Shown here piece by piece: positions 2,554 to 53,837 of a stretch of DNA of 53,837 nucleotides. Below the pieces are notes generated by a model. The model did not search any database. It was not told the DNA's origin and worked only from the letters and a program-made list of their open reading frames with translations. This DNA comes from an uncultured Eubacteriales bacterium. GTDB lineage: Bacteria > Acidobacteriota > Aminicenantia > Aminicenantales > Aminicenantaceae. The position numbers and the translations under genes are program-made. How positions within the stretch are numbered: position 1 is the stretch's first letter; the number at the start of each line of letters is the position of its first letter. The stretch spans positions 21,631-75,467 of the forward strand of contig CAYULB010000004.1 in the NCBI GenBank assembly GCA_964445575.1, written 5' to 3'.

Positions 2554-2621
2554 TTGACAATTCATCAGAAAAATATATATTATATTTCTATAACTTGCCA
2601 ATAATGGTAGGAAATAGAAAT
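2554..2621 (+). promoter_or_regulatory. Putative sigma70 promoter and autoregulatory inverted repeat of the abiE operon
   Basis: TTGACA at 2554-2559 with TATATT/TATTAT 16-18 nt downstream. Inverted repeat 2584-2600 / 2605-2621 (13 of 17 matching) runs into the start codon. Confidence 0.55.
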
Positions 2622-4471: not shown

Positions 4472-4592
4472 TTTTTATCCTCAACATGATACTTGACCAC
4501 ATCCACTGTTCCTTCCTCATTGTATTCTCTAAAGAATAAAGAGTTCTTATGTGTCGCGATAAGCGTTCCTCTCACATTCGGACGTTTGGTTT

Positions 4593-4686
4593 TAAATTGT
4601 AAATTGGGGTTGTAAATTGGGGTCGGGCCCGTGTAAATTGTGTAAATTGGGTATGTAAATTGGTAAATTGGGGTCGGGCCCGGCTA
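4593..4686 (+). repeat. Stutter array of truncated TGTAAATTGGGGTCGGGCCCG units ending in core GGGGTCGGGCCCGGCTA
   Basis: Six or seven units of 5-24 nt read directly; core at 4670-4686 is identical to 53816-53832. Confidence 0.85.
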
Positions 4687-4786
4687 TTTCCTTAAATTAC
4701 AGTAACATAGGTAGAGATTTCCACAATATTAATCCCTAATAAGAGATTCATTATGAGGACAAAATATCCCTCTTATAGATTGATTG

Positions 4787-14620: not shown

Positions 14621-14650
14621 ACGGGACAAAACGGGACAAAGTGGGAAATT
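14621..14650 (+). promoter_or_regulatory. MraZ operator (10-bp periodic direct repeats)
   Basis: ACGGGACAAA ACGGGACAAA GTGGGAAATT directly at the mraZ start. Confidence 0.75.
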
Positions 14651-16001: not shown

Positions 16002-16312
16002 TGGTAAGAAAAAAACTTAAAAAAGAAACAGTTGCCCGGACTGCTGCCTTCGTTCTGATGATAATCCTTATTTTGACTTTTTATATCTGGCGGCAGGCTG
16101 AATCAGTCAAGATCGGGTACTCCATAAGAGATCTGGAAGAAAAAGTGATTGCACTTCAGAAAGAAGTGGAAACTCTGGAAGCAGAAAAGACCTCCTTTCT
16201 CTCTCTCGAAAGGGTAGAAAAAAAAGCAAAACAGAAATTAGGACTGAAAGAACCCGAAGAGAAGCAGTTGATATATGAAGATTTTGGAGAGTCTAACAAC
16301 CAAGACCAATGA
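16001..16312 (+). CDS. ftsL: Cell division protein FtsL
   Basis: Single TM plus coiled coil, between rsmH and ftsI. Confidence 0.8.
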   Translation: MVRKKLKKETVARTAAFVLMIILILTFYIWRQAESVKIGYSIRDLEEKVIALQKEVETLEAEKTSFLSLERVEKKAKQKLGLKEPEEKQLIYEDFGESNNQDQ

Positions 16313-18060
16313 GTGCAAATGCAGCCAAGAAAACAAGAAGAAGAACTCTGTTCATAGTGTTTTTATTTCTGCTCTGGACAGGTGTGATCGGATATCGTCT
16401 GGTTCAACTCCAGGTGGTCCATCATAATGATTTTAAGACTCAGGTCGAAAGACAAAACCAAAATAAAGACGAAATCTTCCCCCAGAGAGGAACCATTTTT
16501 GACAGGAACGGAAATATTTTGGCCTGCAGTGTCCCCAGAGCATCTGTCTTTTACTCAACCGTAGAAGGTGAATCTCTTGAAATCCAGTTCCAAAGAATTG
16601 ACCAGCTTAAAAAAATTCTGGGCATATCCTGGGAGAAAGTCAGGAATATCAAATCTCAGATAAAAATGGATGACCCATTCATTTACATTAAAAGAAAAAT
16701 CGAACCGGAAGAGGAGGACAAGCTCAAAGAACTGGATTTCAAAGGAATCCACATGATCGAGGAAAGCAAGCGTTTTTATCCTCATGGAAATCTTGCTTCT
16801 CATGTGATCGGCAGAGTGGACTTTTCAGAAAAGGGAATAAGCGGTGTCGAGGTCAAATTCGACTCTGTCTTAAGAGGAGAAAAGGGAATCAAGCTGAACT
16901 ACAGAGATGCCAGGAGAAAGGAATACAGCTTTCAAATTTTAAAGCAAGCGGTTCCCGGCGAAGACATTATTCTCAGCATAGACGAAACCATCCAGTACAC
17001 AGCTGCCGAAAGCCTTAAAAGAGCGGTTCAAGAATCCAGAGCAGCCTGGGGCACTATCATTGTTTCCCATCCCCGCTCAGGAGAAATACTGGCTATGTCC
17101 AGCATTCCAGAAAATGACCTGAACAAACCCCTGACCGATATTCGTTCTCTTTACTCAAACAAAGCCATCCATCACGTGTTTGACCCTGGTTCTACCTTTA
17201 AAATCGTTACCTTCACGGCCGCTATTGACTCACATAAAATTCCTTACTCAGAAACTTTTGACTGCAGCAAAGGTTATATCAGAGTGGTTAACAAGACATT
17301 CCATGACCATCACAGGTATGACCTGCTTTCATTCCCAGAAGTGATCATTTATTCATCCAATGTAGGGACCATACAAATAGGCCAGATGGTGGGAGAAGAG
17401 CTTTTTTATGAGAAAATCAAATCTTTTGGATTCGGGAAAAAAACAGGGATTGAGCTTCCTGCAGAACAAAACGGAATTCTTCATCCCCCAGAAAATTGGA
17501 GCCGGCTTTCTTTGGCTTCCCTTTCCATAGGATATGAGATCTCAGTGACCGCGATTCAGCTCCTCAATGCCATGAATATCATTGTCAATCACGGAATTCA
17601 AATCCCTTTTACCATTTTAAAAAAAGAAAGCAATTCCCGTTTTGAGCATTCAGAAGAGGATAAAATACCGGTCCGGGTGATATCGGAAAGCACAGCCCTC
17701 CAAATAAAGGAAATGCTGAAAAGAGTGGTCAATGAAGGCACAGGAAGAGAAGCTCAGCTCAAGGGACATCAAGCGGCTGGAAAAACAGGCACAGCCCAAA
17801 AAATCGACCCCAAGACCCGCGGCTACACTTCTCAGGCTCACACTTCTGTATTCATGGGATTTGTCCCTGCTGATAATCCCGTCATCTCCATTGTCGTGGT
17901 GATCGACGACCCGAAAGGAGCTTATTATGGAGGCCAGGTTTCAGCTCCGGTATTTAGAGAAGTCGCCATAAAAGTGCTCCGTTATCTGGGAATCCCTCCA
18001 GAAACCGAGTACTCAAGGCCAATCATAACAGCCCAGAAAGCGAGCTCAGGAACAACATGA
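16309..18060 (+). CDS. ftsI: Class B penicillin-binding protein FtsI/PBP3
   Basis: RGTIFDRNG, RFYPHG, STFK (SxxK), SSN, KTGTAQ. Confidence 0.92.
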   Translation: MSANAAKKTRRRTLFIVFLFLLWTGVIGYRLVQLQVVHHNDFKTQVERQNQNKDEIFPQRGTIFDRNGNILACSVPRASVFYSTVEGESLEIQFQRIDQLKKILGISWEKVRNIKSQIKMDDPFIYIKRKIEPEEEDKLKELDFKGIHMIEESKRFYPHGNLASHVIGRVDFSEKGISGVEVKFDSVLRGEKGIKLNYRDARRKEYSFQILKQAVPGEDIILSIDETIQYTAAESLKRAVQESRAAWGTIIVSHPRSGEILAMSSIPENDLNKPLTDIRSLYSNKAIHHVFDPGSTFKIVTFTAAIDSHKIPYSETFDCSKGYIRVVNKTFHDHHRYDLLSFPEVIIYSSNVGTIQIGQMVGEELFYEKIKSFGFGKKTGIELPAEQNGILHPPENWSRLSLASLSIGYEISVTAIQLLNAMNIIVNHGIQIPFTILKKESNSRFEHSEEDKIPVRVISESTALQIKEMLKRVVNEGTGREAQLKGHQAAGKTGTAQKIDPKTRGYTSQAHTSVFMGFVPADNPVISIVVVIDDPKGAYYGGQVSAPVFREVAIKVLRYLGIPPETEYSRPIITAQKASSGTT

Positions 18061-19526
18061 ATATTAAAGAACTTACCAACAACGTTCGCGGACTGAAGAT
18101 AAGAGGTGCTGTGGAAGAGGAAATCACAGGAATATCTTACTCCTCTCACAAAATCAGACCTGGGTTCTTGTTTGCCGCTCTTAAGGGAGAAAAACACGAC
18201 GGTTTCCATTTCATTCCAGAAGCCCTTGAAAAGGGAGCTGCAGCTGTGATGTGTGAAAGGAAAAAGCCAGAAGGATTCACCAAAACCTGGATAAAGGCAG
18301 ATGACGCCAGGCTTGCTTTGGCTCTGGTATCCGCTGAATTTTTCAATCATCCCTCAAAGAAAATGAAAATGGTTGGAATAACCGGCACCAAAGGAAAAAC
18401 CACTGCCACTTATTTATTGGAGAAAATTTTAGAGAAAAACGGAAACTCAGCCGGAGTCATCGGAAGCATTTCCTACAGGGGTCCCGAGTTTGTTGTCCCG
18501 GCTCAAAGAACCACTCCAGAAGCTCCTGACACAGACGCTCTTCTCCAAAAAATGCTGGAACAGGGAGCCACTCATTGTGTCATGGAAGTCTCATCACATT
18601 CCATTGAAATGAAAAGAATAAACGGGATTGATTTTGATGTCACTGCTTTCACCAATCTAAGCGGGGAGCATTTAGACTTTCATAAGTCTCTTGAAAACTA
18701 CTTCAACACCAAAAAAAAGCTGTTCCTAACCGCTGAAAACAGCCGTCCTGTTATAAACTCGGACAGTGTCTGGGGAAGGAAACTTGTTTCAGAGTTATCA
18801 AATAAATGTGTAACCTTTGGGTTTAATAAAAATGCAGATGTTTTCCCCCTCCAATTCAGATTTACTTCCAAAGGCATAACTGCCCGCATCCAGTTTCCTA
18901 AAGGAAAAACCGATCTGTCCTCCCCTCTTCTTGGAAAACCAAATCTATACAACATCCTCACAGCTGTGGCTTCGGCCCTGGCAATGGATATACCCCTGGC
19001 AGCAATCAAAGAAGGAATCGCTTCTTTGGAAAGTGTGCCAGGTCGGTTTGAGAGGATACCCAATGAGCTGGGCCTCAATCTTTTTGTGGACTATGCTCAC
19101 ACAGATGAAGCCCTAAAAAATCTCTTGGAAACGGCCAGAGAAATAAGCACCAGCAGAATTATACTGGTGTTTGGAGCTGGAGGAGACCGGGACAAGTCCA
19201 AAAGGCATCGAATGGGAAAAATCGCAGGAAAACTGGCTGACTGGGCCATCATTACTTCAGACAACCCGCGGTCTGAAAACCCTCTGGAGATTATTGCAAG
19301 CATTGAAAAAGGAATTAAAAAAACAGGGAAAAATAAATATGAAATCTTTCCCGACAGAAGAAAGGCCATTGAAAAAGCAGTTTCTATTGGGAATAAAGGA
19401 GATTATATTCTCATTGCGGGAAAAGGGCATGAGAAGTATCAGATCATAAAAGACAGGGTCATTCCGTTTGACGACGTAAAAGTGGCCCAGGATTCTGTAA
19501 AGAAAATAAAAGAGCAGAAGAAATGA
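18057..19526 (+). CDS. murE: UDP-MurNAc-L-Ala-D-Glu:meso-DAP ligase
   Basis: GITGTKGKTT, MEVSSH, DYAHT, DNPR (meso-DAP specificity), AGKGHE. Confidence 0.95.
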   Translation: MNIKELTNNVRGLKIRGAVEEEITGISYSSHKIRPGFLFAALKGEKHDGFHFIPEALEKGAAAVMCERKKPEGFTKTWIKADDARLALALVSAEFFNHPSKKMKMVGITGTKGKTTATYLLEKILEKNGNSAGVIGSISYRGPEFVVPAQRTTPEAPDTDALLQKMLEQGATHCVMEVSSHSIEMKRINGIDFDVTAFTNLSGEHLDFHKSLENYFNTKKKLFLTAENSRPVINSDSVWGRKLVSELSNKCVTFGFNKNADVFPLQFRFTSKGITARIQFPKGKTDLSSPLLGKPNLYNILTAVASALAMDIPLAAIKEGIASLESVPGRFERIPNELGLNLFVDYAHTDEALKNLLETAREISTSRIILVFGAGGDRDKSKRHRMGKIAGKLADWAIITSDNPRSENPLEIIASIEKGIKKTGKNKYEIFPDRRKAIEKAVSIGNKGDYILIAGKGHEKYQIIKDRVIPFDDVKVAQDSVKKIKEQKK

Positions 19527-20905
19527 TCAAATTAAGACTGAGCGAGCTGGCTGAGAAAATGAATGGAAAAATAATTCAGGGATATCCTTCCTCTGTGTTT
19601 AAAGACTACTGCATTGACTCCAGAAAAGCCAAAAAAGGAAGCCTGTTTTTTGCGCTTGAAGACAAAAGAGACGGCCATGATTTTATTTCTGACGCTGTTA
19701 AAAACGGGGCCAAAGGAGCCGTGGTCTCCAAACAAGTTCCTCTAGTAGATGACAAAACCGCTTGTATAAAAGTCCCTCACACATTGAAAGCACTCCAGAG
19801 GCTTGCACATCAAGTCCTTTTAGAACATCCTGTGAAAGTGATTGGAATCACAGGAAGCACGGGCAAAACCACCACCAAAGAATTTGCAGCCGCTTTTCTC
19901 CAGAAGACATGCCGTCTCCTCAAATCACAGGGAAATTATAACAATCACATAGGTCTTCCCCTCTCGCTTTTGAATCTGGGCCAAAATCATGATACAGCGG
20001 TACTGGAATATGGAATGAGCCATGCAGGAGAAATCAGAGAATTGACCTCTATTGCTCGTCCGGACATTGCCGTTATCTGCAATGTCCATCCTGTGCACAT
20101 GGAATTCTTCAAAAGCATTCATGAGATCACAGAAGCCAAAAAAGAAATACTTGACGGAATGAACCCTGATGGGACAGCTATTTTAAATGGAGACCAGCCC
20201 TTTGTCTTGAGCATGGTCAAAGGACTTACAAAAAAGCCGGTCCTTTTTGGGCTGACAGAAAAATGTGATGTAAGAGCTAACAATATTCATATCCATTCTT
20301 TAGAAAAGATGTCTTTTGATTTTTCCTACAGAGGCCATAACGCCAGAACTTCTATCCCTTTCTCCAATAGAGGGTACCTCTATAATTTTCTGGCTGCCGC
20401 AAGCATTGCTTCGGTATTTTCTGTTCCTTTTAAAGAAATCTTAAAAAAAGGAAGAAAACTCAAACCCTTTGTGAACAGAGGCGAGGTGCTTTCTCTAGAA
20501 AATAATATTAAAGTGATAAACGACTCCTACAATTCCAACCCGGCTGCGCTGGAAGAAGCCCTTAAAAGCCTTTCCGCTCAAAAAGGAGGAAGAAAAATTG
20601 CGGTGCTCGGCGATATGCTGGAACTGGGAGAAAGACAAATAGCCTATCACACGGCTGCTGGGAAATCTGTAGCTGAAAACCATATTGACCTGCTGATAAC
20701 CATCGGCTCTCATGCAAAATACATTGCTGAAGGCGCAGCACTATCCGGAATGCCCTCTCAAAACATCATTTCTTTTGAACAGTCTGAAGAAGCTGCCCAA
20801 AAAGTCCCGGAACTTCTGAAAAAAAATGACTTTATATTAGTCAAAGGGTCCAGAGGAGTCAAAACTGAAAAGGTTATCAAGGCTTTGAAAAGGAAAGGAA
20901 AATAA
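19523..20905 (+). CDS. murF: UDP-MurNAc-tripeptide:D-Ala-D-Ala ligase
   Basis: GITGSTGKTTTKE, NNHIGLP, DSYNSNP, LGDMLELG, KGSRG. Confidence 0.95.
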   Translation: MIKLRLSELAEKMNGKIIQGYPSSVFKDYCIDSRKAKKGSLFFALEDKRDGHDFISDAVKNGAKGAVVSKQVPLVDDKTACIKVPHTLKALQRLAHQVLLEHPVKVIGITGSTGKTTTKEFAAAFLQKTCRLLKSQGNYNNHIGLPLSLLNLGQNHDTAVLEYGMSHAGEIRELTSIARPDIAVICNVHPVHMEFFKSIHEITEAKKEILDGMNPDGTAILNGDQPFVLSMVKGLTKKPVLFGLTEKCDVRANNIHIHSLEKMSFDFSYRGHNARTSIPFSNRGYLYNFLAAASIASVFSVPFKEILKKGRKLKPFVNRGEVLSLENNIKVINDSYNSNPAALEEALKSLSAQKGGRKIAVLGDMLELGERQIAYHTAAGKSVAENHIDLLITIGSHAKYIAEGAALSGMPSQNIISFEQSEEAAQKVPELLKKNDFILVKGSRGVKTEKVIKALKRKGK

Positions 20906-20906
20906 A

Positions 20907-21995
20907 GTGCTTTATTTGATCCTGGTTCCCATCAAAAAATACTTCATATTTTTCAATGTATTTCGCTACATCACAGTCAGAACAGCTTTGAGCGGGATAA
21001 CCGCTCTCCTCATCACCCTGATTGTCGCCCCATGGCTGATAAAACTCATGAGAAAACATCAGTACGGCGAATCCATAAGAGATGTAGGCCCCAAGACCCA
21101 TTTCACAAAAAAAGGGACCCCTTCTATGGGAGGCATCCTGATCATTGGAGCCACCGCTGTCTCTACCCTGTTATGGGGAGACCTTGGCAATTTATATATC
21201 TGGCTTGGTATGGCGACCATGCTTTTATTCGGCGCTCTGGGATTATGGGATGATTATCTTCAAATCAGAAAAGCCAAGCCTAAGGGACTGATAGCAAGAC
21301 ACAAAATCATATTCCAGACCTTATTTGCCGCGGCTATTGCTGTGGTGCTTTTTTACATGGGTCTTAAAGGTGATTTCAACCTTCATCTCACCTTCCCCTT
21401 TTTCAAGGAGTGGGCTCCTTACCTGGGGATGTTTTATATACCATGGATCATGTTTATTATGGTCAGTTCATCCAACGCAGTGAATCTTGCAGATGGACTT
21501 GACGGACTTGCCATAGGGCTGACCCTGATCAGTGCCTCCTCTTTCACCGCTCTTTCTTACATAGCAGGACACGCTCTCTGGTCCCAGTACCTGAATATAC
21601 TTCCTGTCCCCCCGGCTGCAGAGCTCACCATTCTACTGGGATCTTTATCCGGATCCTGTCTGGGATTCCTGTGGTACAACTGTCACCCGGCAGAAATCTT
21701 TATGGGCGATGCTGGTTCTCTGTCTCTAGGCGCCACTATAGGAATCATAGCCATAATGATCAAACAGGAATTTCTGCTTTTTATGGTGGCCGGCGTATTT
21801 GTTCTGGAAGCCCTTTCTGTAGTGATACAGGTAGGGTATTTTAAAATCACAGGAGGAAAAAGGGTTTTCAAGATGACCCCCCTGCACCATCATTTTGAAC
21901 TTTTGGGGTGGTCGGAACAAAAAATCGTGGTCAGGTTTTGGATAGCAGGGATTATATTCGCCCTTTTCAGCCTGACAACACTGAAACTAAGATAA
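20907..21995 (+). CDS. mraY: Phospho-N-acetylmuramoyl-pentapeptide transferase
   Basis: KKGTPSMGG, DDY, NAVNLADGLDGL, FMGDAGS, PLHHHFE. Confidence 0.97.
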   Translation: MLYLILVPIKKYFIFFNVFRYITVRTALSGITALLITLIVAPWLIKLMRKHQYGESIRDVGPKTHFTKKGTPSMGGILIIGATAVSTLLWGDLGNLYIWLGMATMLLFGALGLWDDYLQIRKAKPKGLIARHKIIFQTLFAAAIAVVLFYMGLKGDFNLHLTFPFFKEWAPYLGMFYIPWIMFIMVSSSNAVNLADGLDGLAIGLTLISASSFTALSYIAGHALWSQYLNILPVPPAAELTILLGSLSGSCLGFLWYNCHPAEIFMGDAGSLSLGATIGIIAIMIKQEFLLFMVAGVFVLEALSVVIQVGYFKITGGKRVFKMTPLHHHFELLGWSEQKIVVRFWIAGIIFALFSLTTLKLR

Positions 21996-21996
21996 A

Positions 21997-23367
21997 ATGG
22001 ACCTCAGAGGCAAAAAAGTTCTGGTAGTCGGTTTTGGCAGGACAGGGAAAGCTGTGTGCGACTTTCTCCTTCAGGACACTCCTCTGAGCATAAAAGTAAC
22101 GGATTCAAAAAAAAGCCCGGAACTGATTAAGGAAAGCAAACCTTATCAGAAAAAAGGGATTGAATTTGAAATCGGAGGTCACCATGTTCAATCATTCCTG
22201 GAGGCAGACCTGGTTATATTAAGTCCCGGCGTTCCCCCCATTCCGCCTATTGCAGAAGCCCTCCGCAGGGGAGTGAAAACAATATCTGAAATAGAGCTCG
22301 CTTTTCACTTCTTAAAAGGGAAAATCATAGGCATCACAGGTTCAAACGGAAAATCCACCGTAGCCTCCCTGGTCCACAGCATACTCCAAGAGGGAGGCTT
22401 GAAATCCCGTCTGGCTGGAAACATTGGAACTCCCTTGATCCGCTTTGCCCTCAACAGTTCTGAAGAGGATATTTATGTGACAGAGCTTTCAAGCTTTCAG
22501 CTTGAATACATTGAAAGCTTTTCTCCTGATGTCTCGGTCATCCTCAATATAACTCCAGACCATCTAAACTGGCATGAAACCTTCTCATCCTATCTTAACG
22601 CAAAAATCAAGCTATTGAAAAATCAGAAAAAAAATCAAACCACAATCCTAAACAGAGACGACCCCAATGTCTGGCCAGCAAGAAAACAGGGGCCAAAAAA
22701 CATACTGGCTTTCAGCATAAAAAACAGAGTGCGCCGCGGATGCTTCCTTCAAGGGGATTGGATTGTGCTTAAACATAAGACAGAGCAGAAAGTTATGGAT
22801 ACAGGGGAAATCCCTTTAAAAGGAATTCACAATCAAGAAAACGTGATGGCTTCAATTCTAGCAGGGTACGTGCTTCAAGTTCCTGTGGATAAAATCAGAA
22901 AAACCATCAGAAACTTCCAGGCCCTGGAGCACCGCCTTGAAAAAGTGCTCTCCCTTAAAGGAGTAGATTTTTATAACGACTCCAAAGCCACCAACATTGA
23001 CGCAGCGCTCAAGTCGATCATGAGTTTTGATAAGAAAATAATCCTGATTTTAGGAGGAAGGGACAAAGGAGGGGATTTCAGCCGCCTCAAAAAGGAGATT
23101 AAAAAACGGGTTAAAAAAATAATTGTACTGGGGGAAGCCAGGGAAAAAATCATAAAGAGCCTGGGTCATGACACAGAGATTAAAAAAGCCGAATCCTTAA
23201 AACAAGCTGTGGAATGGGGCTATGAGAATTCAAATCCAGGAGACACTGTGCTTTTAGCTCCGGCTTGCACCAGTTTTGATATGTTCGAGAATTTTGAGCA
23301 TAGAGGAAAGGTTTTTAAACAGGAAGTCAAAAAACTTTCAAAAAAAACAAACAAGGCAGATAATTAA
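21997..23367 (+). CDS. murD: UDP-MurNAc-L-Ala:D-Glu ligase
   Basis: SPGV, GITGSNGKST, ELSSFQL, NDSKATN, APACTSFD. Confidence 0.96.
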   Translation: MDLRGKKVLVVGFGRTGKAVCDFLLQDTPLSIKVTDSKKSPELIKESKPYQKKGIEFEIGGHHVQSFLEADLVILSPGVPPIPPIAEALRRGVKTISEIELAFHFLKGKIIGITGSNGKSTVASLVHSILQEGGLKSRLAGNIGTPLIRFALNSSEEDIYVTELSSFQLEYIESFSPDVSVILNITPDHLNWHETFSSYLNAKIKLLKNQKKNQTTILNRDDPNVWPARKQGPKNILAFSIKNRVRRGCFLQGDWIVLKHKTEQKVMDTGEIPLKGIHNQENVMASILAGYVLQVPVDKIRKTIRNFQALEHRLEKVLSLKGVDFYNDSKATNIDAALKSIMSFDKKIILILGGRDKGGDFSRLKKEIKKRVKKIIVLGEAREKIIKSLGHDTEIKKAESLKQAVEWGYENSNPGDTVLLAPACTSFDMFENFEHRGKVFKQEVKKLSKKTNKADN

Positions 23368-23369
23368 AA

Positions 23370-24479
23370 ATGGAAGCATTCAAACGGTTCGGTTTTGACA
23401 AACCATTGTTCCTCACCACACTCATCCTGGTTGCTTTTGGCCTGATCATGGTGTTCAGTTCATCTGCGGTCCAATCCAATGAAAATTTCGGTCATCCTTT
23501 CTACTATCTGATAAACCAGTCTATAGGAGCTGTGATTGGCATTATCCTGATCCTGATCATTGTTTCCATGAAACCTACTTTTTATCAGAATGTTTTGTTC
23601 ATATATGGACTGCTGATTATTACTTTAGTCCTTCTGGCAATATGTTTTGTCATGCCTGAAGTGAATGCAACCAACCGGTCCATCCATCTCCTGAACCTCA
23701 GATTCCAGCCATCCTCACTGGCAAAGCTCAGCCTCATCTTGTTTTTAGCTTCCTATCTGAGCAGAAAGCAGGACAAGCTACATCAAATAAAGTCTCTTAT
23801 CATTCCCGCTGCGGTAATGTTTATTTTTATCTTACTGATAATAAAGGAACCGGATTACAGCACCTCGCTTTTTATCTTCATGGTCGGATCCATCATGCTT
23901 TTCATAGGAGGCATAAGAATAGACAAACTCTTTTTAGTGGGACTCCTCTCTCTCGTGCTTTTTGCGTTTTATCTGTTCCAGGCAAGCTACCGGATCGAAC
24001 GGTGGAATTCATATCTTTCTCCATCCAATGACCTTCTGGGGAGCGGTTTCCATGCCTACCAGTCCAAACTGGCCGTGGGTTCAGGAGGGGTTATGGGAGT
24101 CAGCATTGCCCAGAGCACACAAAAGCTTTTCTTCCTGCCCTGCGCTCATACTGACTACATCTACGCCATCATAGGAGAAGAACTGGGAATGATAGGAACC
24201 GTGACCGTGCTTCTGCTTTTTGGAATCATATTATGGAGGGGTTTGCTGATATCCAGAAGAGCTCCCGATCAATTCTCCCGTCTTCTGGCTGCAGGCCTTT
24301 CCATTGCCCTTTTTACTCAGGCTATGCTCAATATAAACATTGTGCTGGGACTTCTCCCAGCAACCGGATTGACTCTTCCGTTTATAAGCTATGGAAGGTC
24401 TTCTCTTCTCTATGTTCTGGTGAGTATTGGAATCCTGCTTCATATTTCACAAAGAAAAAAGGCACACAAGACAAAATGA
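23370..24479 (+). CDS. ftsW: SEDS peptidoglycan polymerase FtsW
   Basis: FQPS, EPD, HTDYI..IIGEELG, TGLTLPFISYG; between murD and murG. Confidence 0.93.
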   Translation: MEAFKRFGFDKPLFLTTLILVAFGLIMVFSSSAVQSNENFGHPFYYLINQSIGAVIGIILILIIVSMKPTFYQNVLFIYGLLIITLVLLAICFVMPEVNATNRSIHLLNLRFQPSSLAKLSLILFLASYLSRKQDKLHQIKSLIIPAAVMFIFILLIIKEPDYSTSLFIFMVGSIMLFIGGIRIDKLFLVGLLSLVLFAFYLFQASYRIERWNSYLSPSNDLLGSGFHAYQSKLAVGSGGVMGVSIAQSTQKLFFLPCAHTDYIYAIIGEELGMIGTVTVLLLFGIILWRGLLISRRAPDQFSRLLAAGLSIALFTQAMLNINIVLGLLPATGLTLPFISYGRSSLLYVLVSIGILLHISQRKKAHKTK

Positions 24480-25570
24480 GAGAAAAGAGAGTGATAATTT
24501 CTGGAGGCGGGACCGCAGGTCACATCTATCCAGCGCTGGCAGTGGGCAAAAAACTCATCCAGAAAAGCTTTAAAATCACTTTTATAGGGACTACCCGAAA
24601 ATTAGAACAATCTCTAATGGAACACTACCAAGCGGATTTCATTCCTTTAAAAATAAAAGGCCTTAAAGGAAAAGGCCTCTCAGCAATCAAGTCGATCCTT
24701 ATTCTCCCCTCTTCCTTTGTCAAATCTCTACTCATCATCATCAAGAAAAAACCAGCACTGGTTATCGGAATGGGAGGTTACAGTTCAGGTCCGGTGGTGC
24801 TGCTGTCTTCATTACTGGGGATCCCATCCCTGATAATGGAACAAAATCTCCGTCCTGGTTTAACCAATAGACTGCTGATCCCCTTTGTTCAAAAAGCTGT
24901 GGTTTCTTTTGAAAAGTCCCTTCCGGAATTCAAAGGGAAAGGCGAGCTGCTGGGAAACCCGGTCCGAGAACACTTCTACTCTTTAAAGCCCAAAAAAAGA
25001 GATGAATATCTCACAGTGCTCATATTTGGGGGGAGTCAGGGCTCCCATTTCCTAAATACAAAAGTCATCCAAAGCCTCCCCTTGTTGAGAGAAGATAAAG
25101 ACTCGCTTCGGCTCTTCCATCAAACTGGGGAAAAAGACTTGAGTTGGGTCAGAGAAAACTACCAGAAAAAAAATTTGGATAAAGCTGTGGTATCCGACTA
25201 CTTTTTTGATATCTACAAATATTTCGAAAAATCAGACTTAATTGTTTGCAGGGCCGGGGCGACCACCATAGCCGAGCTTATTGCATCCCAGAAACCCTCC
25301 ATCTTAGTTCCCTTTTCCCAGTCTGCAGAAAACCATCAGCTTTTAAATGCCAGGGAATTAGAACGAATACAGGGTGCGGAGGTGATTCTGGAAAAAGATT
25401 TTACTCCTGCTCGGTTTTCATCTAAAATCAGAGATTTTATTGAAAATAAACATAAACTTGATCAGATGGAGAAGAATTTAAAAAAACTAAAAGCAGGAAA
25501 CCCGGCTGAAAAAATCGCTGACCTCTGTGTGAAACTGACAGAAAAAAAACAAAAGGAGGAAATAAATTGA
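24476..25570 (+). CDS. murG: Lipid II GlcNAc transferase MurG
   Basis: GGGTAGHIYP, GGYSS, GNPVR, GGSQG, RAGATT. Start moved to ATG 24476, which overlaps the ftsW stop. Confidence 0.95.
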   Translation: MREKRVIISGGGTAGHIYPALAVGKKLIQKSFKITFIGTTRKLEQSLMEHYQADFIPLKIKGLKGKGLSAIKSILILPSSFVKSLLIIIKKKPALVIGMGGYSSGPVVLLSSLLGIPSLIMEQNLRPGLTNRLLIPFVQKAVVSFEKSLPEFKGKGELLGNPVREHFYSLKPKKRDEYLTVLIFGGSQGSHFLNTKVIQSLPLLREDKDSLRLFHQTGEKDLSWVRENYQKKNLDKAVVSDYFFDIYKYFEKSDLIVCRAGATTIAELIASQKPSILVPFSQSAENHQLLNARELERIQGAEVILEKDFTPARFSSKIRDFIENKHKLDQMEKNLKKLKAGNPAEKIADLCVKLTEKKQKEEIN

Positions 25571-26955
25571 TCAAACGCACCAACCGGAAGCTGAAGCATA
25601 TCCACATGGTCGGAATCGGAGGCACTGGAATGAGCGGAATTGCTGAGATCCTTCTCAACCTGGGTTACAAAGTATCCGGCTCAGACTTGGTCTCTCAGGA
25701 ATCAACCAGACGTCTCACTAAGTTAGGAGCTGATATCCACATCGGGCACAAACCAGGGCGAGTGGAGGGAGCTGATGTCGTGGTGATTTCCTCAGCTGTC
25801 AAGCAGGACAATATAGAAGTCCAAGAAGCGGAAAAGTTAAAAATACCGGTTATCCCAAGAGCAGAGATGCTGGCAGAGCTCATGCGTTTAAAAAACAGCA
25901 TTGCCGTGACCGGCTCTCACGGTAAAACATCCACCACTTCAATGATCGCCCAGGTCTTGGAAAAAGGAGATTACGACCCCACCATAATAGTGGGAGGGCG
26001 CCTGAACACAGTGGGAGCGCATGCCAAACTGGGAGAGGGGGAGTTCATCGTGGCTGAAGCAGATGAAAGCGACCGCTCTTTTCTTTATCTGTCTCCGTAT
26101 ATAGCTGTGCTCACAAACCTGGATGAAGAGCACCTGGACCAGTACCATACAGTTGATGAAATAAAAAAGACCTTTATAAACTTTGCCAATAAAGTCCCCT
26201 TTTACTGCCCGATAATCCTGTGCCTTGACGATTCAAACCTCCAGAGCTTGATCCCTGACCTTGAGAGAAAGATCATCACCTATGGCTCTTCGGCTCAAGC
26301 AGACATCTATGCAGCAGACCAGGAATTCAGACATTTCTCAAGCACCTCCACCCTTTTTCATAAAAACAAGAAGTTGGGTCAGCTCAAACTGAATGTCCCT
26401 GGGGTCCACAGCATTTATAATGCCATGGCAGCCGTAGCTGTGGGGCTTGATCTGAATATGCCAGTTCCTGATATTCTGGATGCCCTCGAAAACTACAAGG
26501 GAATCGGAAGGCGCTTTGAGCTGAGAAAGACAGTTAACGACATCATGGTTATCGAAGACTACGCCCATCACCCCACAGAAATCATAAAGACCCTGGAAGC
26601 AGCCAAAAGAGGATGGAATCGAAGAACAGTAGCTGTTTTTCAGCCTCACCGGTATTCCCGTTTATCTCTTCTCATGAAAAAATTCGCCACTTCGTTCAAT
26701 CAGGCAGATGTCCTTATCATCACTGAAATCTATCCAGCCGGAGAAAATCCGATTCCAGATATATCTGGAGAAAAGCTTTACCAGGAAATACAAAAGTATG
26801 GACATAAAAATATCCATTTTGAACCTGAACTCAAAAAAATTTCAGAGCTGGTTTCAGAACTGGCGCTACCTGAGGATATGATACTGGTCCTGGGAGCAGG
26901 CAGCATTTCTGAAACCATACCCGGCATTATAAAAAAATTGAAAGGCAAAAAATAA
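25567..26955 (+). CDS. murC: UDP-MurNAc:L-Ala ligase
   Basis: GIGGTGMSGIA, GSHGKTSTT, EADESD, DYAHHPTE, FQPHRYSR. Confidence 0.96.
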   Translation: MIKRTNRKLKHIHMVGIGGTGMSGIAEILLNLGYKVSGSDLVSQESTRRLTKLGADIHIGHKPGRVEGADVVVISSAVKQDNIEVQEAEKLKIPVIPRAEMLAELMRLKNSIAVTGSHGKTSTTSMIAQVLEKGDYDPTIIVGGRLNTVGAHAKLGEGEFIVAEADESDRSFLYLSPYIAVLTNLDEEHLDQYHTVDEIKKTFINFANKVPFYCPIILCLDDSNLQSLIPDLERKIITYGSSAQADIYAADQEFRHFSSTSTLFHKNKKLGQLKLNVPGVHSIYNAMAAVAVGLDLNMPVPDILDALENYKGIGRRFELRKTVNDIMVIEDYAHHPTEIIKTLEAAKRGWNRRTVAVFQPHRYSRLSLLMKKFATSFNQADVLIITEIYPAGENPIPDISGEKLYQEIQKYGHKNIHFEPELKKISELVSELALPEDMILVLGAGSISETIPGIIKKLKGKK

Positions 26956-26956
26956 C

Positions 26957-27823
26957 ATGGCTGTTAACCTGAATCCGCCGCTCAAACAGAAGCTGAACCC
27001 TTTTTTATCCCCCCCCTACTTCCGCAGAAAAGAAGAAGACGTTAAATCAAATCGAATCAAGAGAAAAGTCAAGCTCAGACCCAAGCACATTATCATCAGC
27101 TTTCTGCTCATCAGCGGCTTATTCCTGTTGATACAGCAGGCCTATCTGTTCCTTATCACATGGGAGAAGCTGAAAGCAGACCAGGTTGGAATCAAATGTC
27201 CCAAACCTGAGCTGGAAAAAACAATTCAGAACTATTTCATGGAGAAAAATTTAGGAAACCTTTTGCTTCTGGATATAAAAAGAGTTCAGGAAACCATCAA
27301 ATCCCATGCCTGGGTCAAAGATGTTCACATCAAAAAGAAATTCCCTTCCACTCTGAGCATAGAAGTTGTGCCAAGAGTCCCCCTTGCTGTGATAAAGACA
27401 GAACAATATTATCTTATTGACAGAGATGGAATTCTGATTCAATCCATTGACCCTTCTGAAACAAAGGGGCTTCCTGTTATCATCGAAGACAACGACTTTG
27501 AGTCTGGATTCATGGACAAATTCGAACTGGCCGTAAAATGCCTCGATGACCTCTCTCCAGAACAAAAAAAAGGGGTAGAAAAGATAGACCTTTCCAAACA
27601 CAAGTGTGTCTCCATCAAGCTTGACCAAATTTCTCCCTGGCTTATTTTGGGAGACAGCCGGTTTTCAGAAAGAATCCAGGACTACACAGACAAACGGTCT
27701 TATTTTGCCAAATTCGGAGAATTGGAAAGCATAAACATAAGATATGAAGGCCGGTACATACTGACCCCGAGTAAAAAAGGATTTGATAGCCAATTATACA
27801 CCACAGGGAAGGAGGAAAGCTGA
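26957..27823 (+). CDS. ftsQ: Cell division protein FtsQ/DivIB
   Basis: TM plus POTRA-like WVKDVHIKKKFPSTLSIEV; directly upstream of ftsA. Confidence 0.85.
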   Translation: MAVNLNPPLKQKLNPFLSPPYFRRKEEDVKSNRIKRKVKLRPKHIIISFLLISGLFLLIQQAYLFLITWEKLKADQVGIKCPKPELEKTIQNYFMEKNLGNLLLLDIKRVQETIKSHAWVKDVHIKKKFPSTLSIEVVPRVPLAVIKTEQYYLIDRDGILIQSIDPSETKGLPVIIEDNDFESGFMDKFELAVKCLDDLSPEQKKGVEKIDLSKHKCVSIKLDQISPWLILGDSRFSERIQDYTDKRSYFAKFGELESINIRYEGRYILTPSKKGFDSQLYTTGKEES

Positions 27824-29046
27824 TGCCTAAAAACGGATATATTGTGGGGATTGACGTGGGGACAAAAAAAATAACAGCCCTCATCGGAGAAGTCACAGAG
27901 GAGAAAAAAATAGAAATCATCGGCATAGGAACAGCAAATTCAAGAGGGCTGAGAAAGGGAGTGGTGGTCAACCTTGATGCAACGGTAGAGGCCATAAAAA
28001 AGGCCCAGGAAGAAGCAGAGCTTATGGCCGGCTTTGAGATAGACCAAGCTTACATCGGAATCTCAGGAGCACATATAAAAAGTTTTAACAGCCGAGGTGT
28101 GATTGCTGTGTCTGGAAAAAACAGAGAAATCACTCGGGAAGATATAAGACGAGTCATTGAGCAGTCCAAAGCAGTCTCTATTCCCCCTGACAGAGAGATC
28201 ATTCACATCATCCCTCAGGAATATGTGGTGGATGAGCAAGACGGAATCAAATATCCCTTAGGAATGAGCGGGATAAAGCTGGAAGTCAATGTCCACATAG
28301 TCACAGGAGCCATCACTTCAGTGCAAAACCTTAAGACCTGCATATCCCGAACCGGCATCGGGATAGAACAGATCGTTTTGAACCAAATCGCGACCAGCCA
28401 ATCTGTTCTCACCCATGATGAGATGGAGCTGGGAGTGGGATTGATAGACATCGGAGGCGGAACCACGGAAATAGCTATTTTTGAAAGAGGAAGTCTCTGG
28501 TACACTTCAGTCATTCCTATTGGTGGAGATAACTTTACCAATGATATTGCTGTGGGTCTCCGAACTCCCATTCCAGAGGCAGAAAAAATAAAGAAAAAAT
28601 TCGGCTGCGTGTCCAGCCCTCTGGTAGATGAACAGGACACTATTGAAGTCCCTTCTGTGGGCAGGGCCAAAAAAGCCAGAGTGCTTTCCAGGCAGCTTCT
28701 TGCTGAAATCATACAACCGAGAGCTGAAGAAATATTTCGTCTGGTTGACAATGACATCAAAAGAATGGGTTATGAAAAATCACTGAATTCTGGCATTGTG
28801 CTCACTGGAGGAACTTCTCTTCTGGAAGGTCTTGAAGAAATCGCAGAAGGTGTGTTTGACCTTCCCGTAAGACACGGAGATCCCGGAGGAGCCGGAGGAC
28901 TGGTGGACAGAGTCAGCACTCCGGATTATTCCACCTCCGTGGGTCTCTTGCTCTACGGATTCAATAAATGGAAGGAAAAAGGATTTCCTAAAGATAAAAA
29001 GAAAGGCTTCTGGGTCAAACTTAAAGATTGGCTCAAGGAAGCATAG
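27823..29046 (+). CDS. ftsA: Cell division protein FtsA
   Basis: GIDVGTKKI, GLRKGVVVN, DIGGGTT, LTGG, C-terminal amphipathic helix. Confidence 0.97.
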   Translation: MPKNGYIVGIDVGTKKITALIGEVTEEKKIEIIGIGTANSRGLRKGVVVNLDATVEAIKKAQEEAELMAGFEIDQAYIGISGAHIKSFNSRGVIAVSGKNREITREDIRRVIEQSKAVSIPPDREIIHIIPQEYVVDEQDGIKYPLGMSGIKLEVNVHIVTGAITSVQNLKTCISRTGIGIEQIVLNQIATSQSVLTHDEMELGVGLIDIGGGTTEIAIFERGSLWYTSVIPIGGDNFTNDIAVGLRTPIPEAEKIKKKFGCVSSPLVDEQDTIEVPSVGRAKKARVLSRQLLAEIIQPRAEEIFRLVDNDIKRMGYEKSLNSGIVLTGGTSLLEGLEEIAEGVFDLPVRHGDPGGAGGLVDRVSTPDYSTSVGLLLYGFNKWKEKGFPKDKKKGFWVKLKDWLKEA

Positions 29047-29055
29047 GAGGTAAAA

Positions 29056-30276
29056 ATGAGTGAGGAACAAAAAAACAAACTAAAATTTCATCTGGTTGAT
29101 GAAAGCACTGGAGCAAAAATCAGGGTCATTGGAATAGGTGGAGGCGGCGGAAATGCCGTAAACCGCATGATAGAATCCCAGATTGATGGGGTGGAATTCA
29201 TTGCGGTTAACACCGACCTTCAAGCCTTAAACAGCAACAAATCCAGAACCAAGGTCCAAATAGGAAACAAACTGACCAAGGGACTGGGTTCTGGAGGCCG
29301 TCCTGACATTGGCCGGGAAGCATCTATGGAAGATACTGAAAAGCTGATTGAGCTCCTGGAAGGTGCAGATATGGTTTTTCTAACCGCTGGCCTGGGAGGA
29401 GGTACAGGCACAGGAGCTACCCCGGTCCTGGCTAACCTTGCTTCAGAAATGGATGTCCTGGCCATAGCTATTGTCACGCTTCCTTTTAATTTTGAAGGAA
29501 AAATCAGAGCAAACCAAGCTGATGAAGGATTGGAAGAATTAAGGTCAGCGGTAGATACTGTAATTTCAATCCCCAATGAGCGGCTTCTGGAAACAGTTAA
29601 TTTAGATACATCCATGCAGGAAGCTTTTAAAATGGCTGACGACATCCTTCGGCAGGCAGTGCAAGGGATTTCAGATTTGATCACCAAACCTGGATTGATA
29701 AACCTTGATTTTGCAGATGTCAAATCCATTATGAAAGGCATGGGCATGGCCTTTATGGGCACTGGGATGGCATCCGGAGAAAACAGAGCCTTGGATGCCG
29801 CTCAGAAAGCCATTTCCTCTCCCCTGTTGGTAGATACATCAATCTCCGGAGCTCAGGGAGTGCTCATCAACATCACAGGAGGCAAGGATATCCGCTTACA
29901 CGAAGTTTCCAAAGCATCTGAATTGATTCACCAAAAAGCCCATCCCGATGCCAACATTATTTTCGGAACTGTCATTGATAGTTCCATGAAAGAAACCGTC
30001 AAGGTCACAGTCATTGCCACAGGATTTGACGAACAGGAAGAGCAGGACCAAATCACGCCCCAGGAACTGATCTCTCATCCCTCTAAACAAACTCCTCCCC
30101 CTTTTGAAGTTCCTGAAGAAACCCCTCCCTACGTGTTCAAACCAAGAGGAAACCGGGTTATTGATGAAACTCCTAAAACCAGCTGGGAAAAAAGATGGGA
30201 TTCCTTTGATACTCCTTCCTTTATTCGAAAAAATAAAGAGAGGTCTGCAGGAAAATCCTCTCATGATATCAGCTGA
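29056..30276 (+). CDS. ftsZ: Cell division protein FtsZ
   Basis: [24 protein letters not shown]-terminal FDTPSFIRK. Confidence 0.98.
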
Positions 30277-31534
30277 CTTAATCATTTCCGGATGTGATCA
30301 GCTCCTCACATGCAGGGGGTCTGCGCCCAAAAGAAAAGACCGTCTGCAGGAGTTGGGAGTGATCGAGAAAGGCTGTATAGCCTCCAGAAACGGAAATATT
30401 GTCTTTGTCGGCTCAGAAAATGAATTAAACAATAAAGTCTGCAAAGCCCCGGGATGCCTTACCCTAGAGGGAAGAGGAATGACCTGCCTTCCTGGACTTG
30501 TGGACTCCCATACCCACCTTCCTTTTGCCGGAAGCCGAGAGCAAGAGTTCCTTCTCCGGCTCAAAGGCGCTACCTATCTTGATCTTGCGGAAAGAGGCAT
30601 GGGCATACAGAGCACAGTGGATAAAACTCGAAAAGCATCCCTTCAGGAGATTGTTTCTCTGTGCCGGAAAAGACTGGACACCATGCTCCTTCACGGCACC
30701 ACCACAGTGGAGGCCAAAAGCGGGTATGGACTCAACTTAAAAGACGAGATAAAACAGCTGGAAGCCTTAAAAGAAGCTGACAAAGCACATCCGGTTGATA
30801 TCATCTCTACCTTTATGGGAGCTCATGAAGTTCCCAGGGAATATAAGGACAAAAAGCAGGAATACATAAAACTCCTCACTCAAAAAATTATTCCTATTGT
30901 GAAAAAGAAAAACCTGGCCGAATTTTTTGATGTGTTCTGTGAACAGGGGGTTTTCTCCTTAGCAGAGTCAAAAACTCTAATCCATGCCGGGAAAAAAGCA
31001 GGTTTCAAAATTAAAATCCACGCTGATGAATTTTCATCTCTGGGGGGCGCTCAACTGGCTGCTGAGGAAAAGGCCGTGTCTGCTGAACATCTTATCGCCA
31101 TAAACAAACAAGGCATTCAAAAGCTTTCCAAAGCCTCGACAGCAGCCGTTCTGCTCCCAGGTGTCCCGTTCTTTCTTATGCAGAATAAAAGGGCGCCCGC
31201 CCGGAGTCTTATTGATTCAGGTGCAGCCGTTGCCCTGGCCACAGACTTTAATCCAGGAAGTTCCATGACAGAATCCCTCTTCTTTATCATGCAGCTCGGT
31301 GTTTACACCATGAATATGAGTGTGGAAGAATCTATAAATGCGGTCACCCTGAATGCAGCTTATGCCGTGGACCGTCATAAACAGCTGGGAAGCCTGGAAC
31401 AGGGTAAAAAGATGGATGTGATTCTCTGCGACGCTCCTAATTATCCCTTTCTGGTGTATCATTTTGGAGTCAATCCGGTTAAACACGTCATTAAAAACGG
31501 AAAACTGGTGGTGAAAAACGGAATCCTCCTTTAA
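30263..31534 (+). CDS. hutI: Imidazolonepropionase
   Basis: [34 protein letters not shown]. Start moved to ATG 30263. Confidence 0.92.
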
Positions 31535-52525: not shown

Positions 52526-53719
52526 TTATTTGTTTTTGATGGAGAACCGGTAAGACTTTTTCTCCTCACAGAATCTCTTTAAAAACTCAAGCTCTTCTTC
52601 CACCCAATCCCGGCTCTTAAGGATATTTTTAAGTGAATAAACATCCACCGCACACACCTCATCCCATCTCCCCATTTCCTTTAACGCCGCTTCCAGCTCT
52701 TCTCTCTGTTTTGTGTTTTTCCCGGGAAACAAAGCATCTGTGTATTCACTGACCGAGACTTTTTTCTCAGAACCAAAAACAGTGGAGACCCCCTCTCTCT
52801 CACAAAAAGAAAGCAGGGCTTCCTCCATCTTTTGAAGCTTCTCTTGAGCTTCTTTCTGCTTTTCTTTAAGCTCTTCCTTTATGCGAACATATTCATCCAC
52901 CAGCTTTACTCCCGGGTCATCAAGATACTCATTCTCATCTTTCTCTTTAAGTCCTGCTTCATGCTTCCACTCCGGGCAAATCGTCCTATAGGAACACCAG
53001 TCACAAAGCGCAGAAACTCTGGGGGGGAAATCCTCCTCCTCCTCAATCATTTTGATCTCTTCAATGACCTCTTTTCTCAGCTCTTCAAGCTCCTCATTCG
53101 TCCGGAACGATTCCATCTCCATGTCAAAATTAAGAAAATGCCACACCAGACGGGCTTTTTTAAAGTCTTTAAACTGCTCTTGGACCCATAAGGAATAAAG
53201 GGCAAGCTGCCGGTCTTTATCCAGCTTTTCCTGTTCCATCAAAGAACCACCGGTTTTGTAGTCATGCACTTCATAAAAGCCGTTACCCCGGTACATAAGT
53301 CGGTCTATTCTTATGTGAAACAAATATTTTCCCTCTTTATCAAGGGGCAGAAAACTTTTAGTCTCAAGCCCGATGACACGGCCCTCATCAAAGGGAAAAT
53401 GCCGTTGGTAATAATCTGAAAGCTGTCTCTCCCCCATTCTGCGGTAATTTTCTTCTGTGTAGTCATCCTTGATAACCACCACACTGTCTCCCCATTTCTC
53501 ATGCCAGATTTGTTTGAAGTAGGCTAAAAGTTCATCTAGAGTTAGGAGCTTCTCATGCAGTTTATCCCGGTAAAGCTTTTCCAAAGCCTCATGTACCCGG
53601 GAACCAAGAAAAGCTTCCACTGTCTCAGCTTCTGGTTTGATTCTGTCAATGTAAGCATACTTGTACTGAAGCGGACAGGTCTCATAGGTTCCAATTCTTG
53701 ATATGCTGAAAGCTGACAT
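52526..53719 (-). CDS. PD-(D/E)XK nuclease, Cas4/AddB/RecB-like, with iron-sulfur staple and C-terminal helical extension
   Basis: S.S....Y..CP, G..VH..LE, IDRL, DYKTG, QLALY, CDWCSYRTICP. ATG at 53719 (TTG 53728 is an alternative). Confidence 0.85.
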   Translation of the reverse strand: MSAFSISRIGTYETCPLQYKYAYIDRIKPEAETVEAFLGSRVHEALEKLYRDKLHEKLLTLDELLAYFKQIWHEKWGDSVVVIKDDYTEENYRRMGERQLSDYYQRHFPFDEGRVIGLETKSFLPLDKEGKYLFHIRIDRLMYRGNGFYEVHDYKTGGSLMEQEKLDKDRQLALYSLWVQEQFKDFKKARLVWHFLNFDMEMESFRTNEELEELRKEVIEEIKMIEEEEDFPPRVSALCDWCSYRTICPEWKHEAGLKEKDENEYLDDPGVKLVDEYVRIKEELKEKQKEAQEKLQKMEEALLSFCEREGVSTVFGSEKKVSVSEYTDALFPGKNTKQREELEAALKEMGRWDEVCAVDVYSLKNILKSRDWVEEELEFLKRFCEEKKSYRFSIKNK

Positions 53720-53761
53720 TTTAAACAATCCTTATTGAAACATTTGATTTATCCTTCTCCC

Positions 53762-53832
53762 GGCCTGGCCTCCGCCTCCGGGGTCGCCTCCGGCCGCCTC
53801 CCTCGGGCCGCCTCCGGGGTCGGGCCCGGCTA
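53762..53832 (+). repeat. Stutter array of truncated GCCGCCTCCGGGGTC units ending in core GGGGTCGGGCCCGGCTA
   Basis: Units read directly; core 53816-53832 identical to 4670-4686. Confidence 0.85.
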
Positions 53833-53837
53833 ATTCT

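Follow-up and report, generated by a model that had tools for sequence, protein, structure and literature searches.

The closest described relatives of the locus analyzed here are the TIRtrons. The text of Di Nocera et al. 2013 (PMC3733652) gives the name TIRYT to RAYT-like genes that lie between TIRs and calls the resulting units TIRtrons. Many of these TIRs share the sequence GGGGWSAS, some of them form dispersed families, and the group found in Acidobacteria is described there as sharply defined. The text of Quentin et al. 2018 (PMC6006769) equates TIRYT with subclass 2.1 of the TnpAY1 proteins (group 1 of Bertels). According to this text, proteins of subclass 2.1 have a median length of 238 aa, a conserved C-terminal extension and the motifs NHVH, W[EQ] and YIELNP, they go without REP, and the catalytic tyrosine motif of class 2 is Y---NP. 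The same text mentions DnaA-C-like C-termini in some subclass 2.1 transposases (subgroup 2.1.2) and a GGGG tip that is unlike a DnaA box. How repeats are disseminated by enzymes of the RAYT/TnpAREP type is still treated as an open question in the text of a further article (PMC8266576). Here, we describe a dispersed repeat of about 110 nt that, judged by its sequence, is a new TIRtron-type family, with solo copies scattered in the intergenic DNA of an Aminicenantes-type genome and its close relatives. The Aminicenantes are neighbours of the Acidobacteria, where a distinct TIRYT group has been described.

The window, by which we mean the whole stretch of DNA that was analyzed (53,837 nt), corresponds to positions 21631-75467 of contig C4 (87,351 nt) of genome G000, an assembly of 2.43 Mb in 104 contigs that is 92.55% complete. 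A long co-directional run of open reading frames (14641-31534, + strand), which from the ORF layout alone has the look of a cell-division/cell-wall cluster, suggests that the window is core chromosome and not an island. The last part of the window, positions 53762-53837, reads ggcctggcctccgcctccggggtcgcctccggccgcctccctcgggccgcctccGGGGTCGGGCCCGGCTAattct and agrees with the units that the sequence-only reading had listed. It begins with a stutter array on the + strand (53762..53815), in which pieces of the local flank (..CTCC / GCCTCC) are joined to tip prefixes (GGGGTC, GG, ..TCGGGCC). Directly 3' of the array lies an intact outer tip, the earlier 'core', as an exact match to GGGGTCGGGCCCGGCTA (53816..53832, +), followed by the first 5 nt of the element body (ATTCT, 53833..53837, +) and a gap of 100 N. 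TRF reports a period of 12 for 53772-53818 and of 14 for 53787-53815 (93% matches), and the junction test detects two earlier pseudo-junctions upstream of this copy, at -36 (8 nt of flank and 7 nt of tip) and at -24 (7 nt of flank and 2 nt of tip). The neighbour outside the element is a gene for a Cas4-like PD-(D/E)XK nuclease (52526..53722, -; Pfam PDDEXK_1 1.2e-37, Cas_Cas4 4.7e-09), the start codon of which is 41 nt from the array.

The 17-mer GGGGTCGGGCCCGGCTA is found exactly at 4670-4686 and 53816-53832 and with 2 mismatches at 4619-4635. These 3 matches in the window compare with an expectation of 0.02, and 3 matches were reached in none of 100 shuffles. The 21-mers at 4670-4690 and 53816-53836 are identical at 20 of 21 positions, with one position differing. 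The observation at the window end is confirmed as real and statistically solid. At the first site a sister stutter array (4588..4669, +) is built from a flank of its own, (T)GTAAATT, and tip prefixes of 2 to 13 nt; it contains four pseudo-junctions and, according to TRF, a perfect repeat at 4597-4623 (period 13, 2.1 copies, 100%). The array leads into a sister copy of the element (4670..4775, +, with an approximate right boundary), which consists of the tip, an A/T-rich spacer with a CAGTAACATA block and then ATTTCCACA. The sequence TGTAATTTG, located some 130 nt downstream of the copy at 4670, is one mismatch away from the flank unit of this copy, and the other copies have no counterpart to it. 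Just upstream of the sister array a gene pair is located (2620-4058, +); the second gene encodes an AbiEii nucleotidyltransferase toxin (Pfam 1.8e-19), and the pair is probably a toxin-antitoxin module of the AbiE type.

A search of G000 for the core with up to 3 mismatches returned 28 matches, and an alignment of their right-hand sides shows that the core, which had been taken for a free-standing unit of 17-21 nt, is the outer tip (the first 14-17 nt) of the intergenic element of about 110 nt. The consensus starts with GGGG[A/T]CGGGCCCGG[C/G]nA and about 12 A/T-rich nt; the inner part holds a ATCAATAAG-like block, then TTTTCCACAG and, after about 35 nt, T5-GGGSCC-A5. In the alignment of 51 copies the tip is the most conserved block; it contains the 8-nt palindrome CGGGCCCG and a possible mini-hairpin of 3 bp. 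Every copy carries TTTTCCACA (in some copies TTATCCACA) about 46 nt inside the tip, for instance at window positions 4717-4725 and at C4:75627-75635. Just before it stands a ATCAATAAG(T/A)TAA block, which we take to resemble an IHF site. The TTTTCCACA block itself fits the DnaA-box consensus TT[AT]TNCACA quoted in the text of PMC6006769; as a putative docking site it might position the enzyme or recruit replication proteins. The T5-GGGSCC-A5 box, about 95 nt into the element (e.g. in the L044, L045 and L046 copies), is close to a palindrome. Some copies have a complementary stretch before it, with G-T pairs on the + strand only (L017), a feature that is inconsistent among copies. Rfam gave no match at E <= 1 for five loci with copies, and folding of the 51 copies as single-stranded DNA gave no signal over shuffled sequences on either strand (mean z -0.36 on + and -0.31 on -). 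The element thus lacks a hairpin of the REP type, a point against its recognition by an enzyme with a RAYT fold.

G000 holds about 17 copies of the element (18 hits of the exact pattern, including a spurious one). Within the family 11 of 96 genomes have the exact pattern, and within the genus 6 of 8; a single genome contains as many as 27 copies. The reversed pattern, used as a control, is found in none of the genomes. Among 301 sampled genomes of the phylum, the pattern is confined to G000 and G039, both of the same family. On G082:C10 and G085:C44 the copies form clusters with a common orientation, and many of them begin immediately behind a stop codon. In the stretches G082:C10:33006-70259 and G085:C44:1743-20851 (L044-L046) co-oriented copies follow each other every 1-7 kb; 10 of 12 copies are on the + strand in one of these runs, and all 6 scanned in L046 are on the - strand in the other. 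An integron-like cassette array was considered for these runs and ruled out: ordinary, diverse chromosomal genes in both orientations lie between the copies and no integrase was seen, and hence the element is an interspersed intergenic repeat and not a cassette system. In a comparison of copy strand with the direction of replication, the G-rich strand lies on the G-rich side in 17 of 23 copies, a count in which the clustered copies are not independent, and the window's own copies are placed the opposite way. Target-site duplications were not found at the copies compared. We also rejected a flank mobilized together with the element, as pairs of copies with similar bodies share 2.78 of 8 flank positions and unlike pairs 2.88 of 8; one pair of copies on C20 shares the flank TCTTAT. 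A MITE was discarded as well, since the two ends of solo copies are unlike each other (the GGGG tip and the T5-GGGSCC-A5 box) and no direct repeat is shared on both sides. Inverted ends are a property of the transposase unit as a whole and not of the solo copies.

The transposase gene of this unit lies 0.87 kb beyond the window end (C4:76338-77093, -) and is single-copy in G000 (1 match). It encodes a Y1/HUH protein of 252 aa (P0001) that matches Pfam Y1_Tnp (8.5e-11) and reaches 74.1 bits (1e-20) with the NCBIfam equivalog NF047646 for REP-associated tyrosine transposases, which is below the cut-off of 80. The HUH motif is NHIH at residues 59-62, where N59, H60 and H62 are invariant in 47 homologues, and the W motif is WE (Y99-W100-E101). 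In the tyrosine motif YIDLNM, residues Y121, N125 and M126 are the same in all 47 aligned members, so that proline is replaced by methionine throughout the clade. The homologues are annotated solely as 'transposase', and several are from Candidatus Aminicenantes. An AF2 model (pLDDT 89.1, pTM 0.87) matches E. coli TnpArep (4er8_A) with a Foldseek E value of 3e-07 and with Z 14.9, an rmsd of 2.6 Å and 156 of 165 residues, the next match being at 7.5; the enzyme is thus predicted by the model to have the TnpAREP fold. A C-terminus resembling DnaA domain IV (Bac_DnaA_C) was detected by Pfam neither in the C-terminal 117 aa nor in the 47 homologues, and it was absent among the structural matches, which barely covered residues 203-252.

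Two inverted copies of the element with their tips pointing outward flank the transposase gene in G000, G082 and G084, and in L049 and L050 these inverted repeats are 41 and 33 nt long. G079 and G085 show one flanking copy each, with a contig end close by. Orthologues of at least 67% identity occur, besides G000, only in G079, G080, G082, G084, G085 and G039, and these genomes hold 18, 2, 26, 18, 27 and 8 exact-pattern copies, respectively. Two further genomes of the same genus, G078 and G081, have best matches of 52% and 49% identity and 0 copies. An exception that counts against the link between enzyme and repeat is G058, which is 87% complete and has 5 element copies and no transposase match. 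The four closest orthologues (on G082:C21, G084:C38, G085:C68 and G079:C102) contain one TAA within the aligned range 1-250, and homologues of 248 aa exist. Other clades of this family of Y1 proteins of about 250 aa (49-56% identity) have inverted repeats of their own with different tips. Such repeats were found in L056, L066, L067, L073 and L077; the tips read CTGCCTTGGCTGG in L067 (G042), CAGCTTGGCTGCAGC in L077 (G081), TGGGGACGGGCCACA in L056/L058/L060 and GGGGACGGACC in L073 (G078). This bacterial family thus harbours several TIRtron lineages side by side.

Measured against what the two articles on TIRYT state in their text, the locus resembles a TIRtron in many respects. A RAYT-like Y1 gene (about 240-260 aa in the published units, 252 aa here) is placed between TIRs instead of hairpin REPs, and the TIR is in addition a moderately abundant dispersed family with single, paired or clustered copies. 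The motifs are shared as well, with NH[IV]H at the HuH site, WE as W motif and YI-LN as Y motif, and the gene is single-copy here. The published tips and the present one both start with GGGGW[C/G]; over the whole motif, GGGGWCGG agrees with the published GGGGWSAS at 7 of 8 positions, position 7 being G and not A. There are other differences as well. The Y motif ends in NM and not in the published NP, and apart from this exchange the transposase fits subclass 2.1. The TIR here also carries the conserved TTTTCCACA block and the T5-GGGSCC-A5 box. Finally, reiterated units of flank and tip at the boundary of the TIR are not described in the text of PMC3733652 or PMC6006769.

The REPtrons of E. coli, Pseudomonas and Stenotrophomonas, in which REP or REPIN sequences are combined with a RAYT, are the next system to compare. 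Here, too, a single-copy Y1/HUH enzyme with a domesticated appearance is located between inverted copies of a repeat, the repeat is spread over intergenic regions, in many cases directly behind stop codons, and the enzyme clade and the repeat family co-occur; the best structural match of the model is also a TnpArep. However, the element has neither a GC-rich hairpin nor a conserved GTAG tag, its copies are mostly single and not doublets, and it is about 110 nt long compared to 20-40 nt for a REP. A REP was rejected given the folding z values, a tip that offers nothing beyond the 8-nt palindrome, and a TAG before the GGGG in just 8 of 51 copies. Elements of the IS200/IS605 family are present in many identical copies and encode a TnpA of about 150 aa. 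They carry subterminal hairpins on one strand and lack inverted repeats, and their left end abuts a fixed target of 4-5 nt. With members of this family such as IS608 and ISDra2 the locus shares the catalytic Y1 HUH fold (Foldseek about 1e-4), the lack of target-site duplications and, presumably, a single-strand cleavage chemistry that leaves a 3'-OH on the flank. An IS200/IS605 element was nevertheless rejected, because the locus has no hairpins and one gene copy, positions -3 to -1 are only biased (T in 31 and A in 27 of 51) and not a fixed target, and the IS200 model gives the transposase 18.7 bits, far below the 74.1 bits of the REP-associated model.

Across the copies, the stutter is shown to be a stack of nested tandem duplications, each of which spans the junction between flank and tip. 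Each duplication comprises 4-14 nt of local flank and mostly 2-7 nt, occasionally 13 nt or more, of the tip. Particularly clean are a perfect 21-nt duplication in L043 (14 nt of flank and 7 nt of tip), the perfect 13-nt duplication at window positions 4597-4623 and a 31-nt duplication in L050. A pseudo-junction was scored when at least 4 nt of the flank end together with at least 2 nt of the tip recurred within 80 nt upstream, and a point 160 nt downstream served as control. Pseudo-junctions are present in 17 of 51 non-redundant copies and at 3 of the 51 controls, and the positive copies come from several species; the set excludes copies that adjoin N or a contig end and so lack flanks, among them the one at the window end. 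The 8-mer at the junction recurs upstream in 13/51 copies and 0/51 controls, the flank 6-mer in 25/51 and 3/51. Pseudo-junctions were also scored at 10 of 17 outer boundaries of 8 transposase units, compared to 3 of 17 controls. The 34 copies that have no pseudo-junction count against the mechanism that we propose below. Stutter is seen as well at the tips of other Y1 clades, which are of unrelated sequence (GGGGACGGACC, CAGCTTGGCTGCAGC), and consequently the rule belongs to the transposase-repeat system and not to the GGGG sequence. The sequence-only reading had proposed that the two arrays of the window arose independently by the same rule. This idea gains support from the composition of the arrays, each of which combines its own local flank with prefixes of the shared core, from the excess of pseudo-junctions over controls and from the behaviour of the other tips. 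No description of such a junction stutter was found in the text of articles on RAYT/REPIN, REP-associated tyrosine transposases and TIRYT, and the literature search returned no paper that combines a Y1 transposase with template switching.

The 100 N after the window end are a scaffold gap inside C4. Past this gap the last 35 nt of the window appear again and are followed by the element body (..TTTTTCCACAG.., C4:75598 onward) and a 4HBT thioesterase gene. The window therefore ends at a scaffold gap, neither at an arbitrary cut in unique sequence nor at a contig end, and what had been read as a contig break 5 nt after the core is a gap with overlapping ends of 35 nt that a contig from one sequencing run (X3, see below) closes directly. 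Overlapping ends were found at 20 of the 26 N-gaps of G000, 13 of them with an overlap of exactly 55 nt and 7 others of 8-41 nt. The 55-nt overlaps look like the k-mer of the assembler, and many scaffold gaps of G000 are probably closable overlaps. Of 15 copies in G000, 9 are no more than 200 nt away from a gap or contig end, a zone that makes up about 2% of the genome. This placement, together with a length polymorphism in public contigs exactly at this point, bears out the earlier expectation of a break at a multicopy or variable element. At G000:C2:110319-110393 a tandem duplication of 58 nt comprises the whole tip and 41 nt of the body; a purine-rich stutter lies next to it, and the contig ends 22 nt away. 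This case shows that duplications can extend far into the element.

The window-end stretch is contained in four public runs (X1-X4) from one microbial-mat study, which is possibly the source of the assembly, so that the runs are not independent of it. In X3 a single contig of 10 kb (depth 111) contains the array with 0 differing letters, extends by kilobases to either side and connects positions 595 and 731 of the compared stretch directly across the gap. Accordingly, the 35 nt on both sides of the gap are one and the same, and the gap is spurious in X3. In X1 and X2 the flanking contigs end inside the array, and a unitig of 63 nt (...GGCTAATTCT + GGG + TCGGGCCGCCTCCGGGG...) represents an allele with one further 38-nt unit, made of GGG and the 35-nt unit. 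Its depth is 96.8 beside about 165 in X1 and 6.8 beside about 7 in X2. In X4 no contig bridges the two sides of the gap; a minor unitig of this run has an additional junction duplication of about 32 nt in the following array, which sits at the tip of the repeat belonging to the transposase itself. The window-end array is shown to be polymorphic and is still variable in natural populations, and the assembly breaks at this point because the array is variable.

Our preferred reading, which we regard as reasonably probable, is that a solo copy of a TIRtron TIR has its outer boundary at the array and that the stutter is made by repeated nicking by the Y1 enzyme. The link between transposase and stutter we infer from their co-location and co-occurrence. 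In the proposed mechanism, single-stranded DNA would be nicked again and again by the Y1 enzyme, either at the tip or slightly outside it. As is usual for HUH enzymes, the flank would then carry a 3'-OH, and the enzyme would stay on the 5' end. A short abortive synthesis into the tip, or breakage of a fork at the nick, might come next, and the DNA might then be re-primed or re-joined at a point some bases further back in the flank. Every round would add one partial unit of flank and tip, at both outer tips of the transposase unit and at solo copies alike. According to the text of PMC8266576, TnpAREP cleaves single-stranded DNA near its repeat at no fixed distance, and the 3'-OH left by HUH enzymes can prime replication; nick-primed repeated rounds are raised there as a possibility for TnpAREP. 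The borders of the duplications have no dinucleotide in common, which counts against a clean enzyme-only route; a common C|T cleavage dinucleotide fits L050 and was rejected, as it fits neither L043 nor window positions 4597-4623. Short filler letters (GGG, TA, C) stand at the joints, and a polymerase or end-joining step fits these better than a clean re-ligation by the HUH enzyme. In rolling-circle HUH initiators (the Rep proteins of plasmids and ssDNA viruses, and relaxases) the 3'-OH at the nick primes a synthesis that regenerates the nick site and permits repeated rounds. For the enzyme described here they can serve as a mechanistic analogy only, with weak matches to Rep-domain folds (Z 4-6).

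The main rival is generic replication slippage or fork stalling at the GC-rich palindrome CGGGCCCG in AT-rich DNA, without any role of the transposase. The palindrome and the possible mini-hairpin of the tip would suit such an origin, and so would the low complexity of the arrays and the 1-3 nt of microhomology that are possible at some joints, such as CTA in L050. However, stutter also occurs at outer tips of related units that have neither GGGG nor GGGCCC, for example CAGCTTGGCTGCAGC in L077, and it is confined to the outer side, the controls 160-200 nt away giving 3/51 and 3/17. Moreover, no arrays are seen in the alignment at the second GC box (T5-GGGSCC-A5), and microhomology is lacking at the borders of clean duplications, for example the 21-nt duplication in L043. 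We therefore consider slippage unlikely as the source of the stutter.

Alternatively, the stutter could have been made once, by messy joining of the element end to its target at insertion, and merely inherited later. Sites that have not received the element do exist. In G078 and G080 there is no element upstream of the nuclease gene; a spacer of about 40 AT-rich nt, homologous to window positions 53721-53761, is followed by divergence. This spacer, which is accompanied by neither element nor array, indicates that both represent an insertion in the G000 lineage, possibly one that displaced the promoter of the nuclease gene, as the sequence-only reading had assumed. Each array also uses the flank of its own target, and many arrays are degenerate, as old events would be. 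An origin at insertion alone is difficult to combine with the variation within a single study, in which samples differ by the 38-nt unit in the window-end array and by the unit of about 32 nt in the neighbouring one. Perfect and hence recent duplications beside decayed ones in the same array point to successive events. For these reasons we judge it quite improbable that the stutter dates from insertion only.

A selected contingency locus, in which the length of the array would tune the flanking genes by promoter spacing (the PD-(D/E)XK nuclease gene in this case), is suggested by the position of a hypervariable array between divergent genes. A scan for promoters gave nothing usable: no sigma-70-like site was found on the minus strand of 53300-53837, a negative that proves nothing in this phylum. 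The sequence units are irregular, unlike those of phase-variable repeats, and arrays are found beside genes of every kind, in either orientation and often just after stop codons, all of which makes selection for this purpose very unlikely. That the array is an artefact of assembly or of low-quality end sequence, as its position at a scaffold gap and the overlapping gap ends typical of a k-mer assembler could suggest, is hardly credible in view of the separately built X3 contig that reproduces it with kilobases on both sides and of equivalent arrays inside long contigs from assemblies of other species.

Returning to repeated nicking by the Y1 enzyme as the reading that we prefer, the finding has practical and biological consequences. 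The tips of the element are hot spots of assembly breakage in MAGs of Aminicenantes, the resulting gaps are often closable, and the arrays could serve as strain markers. The descriptions of TIRYT-type units that we found in the literature are by sequence only, and a reproducible and still-active scar at the outer boundary of the repeat throughout the clade provides an assayable phenotype, the gain of a flank and tip unit, as well as a precise place to look for the cleavage site. As a tentative possibility, to which we lend limited confidence, the stutter may be the natural and cumulative footprint that a HUH enzyme of the RAYT/TIRYT class leaves on its resident repeats, each unit corresponding to one round of nicking at the outer tip, short nick-primed synthesis and re-joining. 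If this is true, it would be the first in vivo read-out of the place and the strand at which such 'domesticated' transposases cut, and it would hint at a replicative, rolling-circle-like spread of the repeats and not at a cut-and-paste mechanism.
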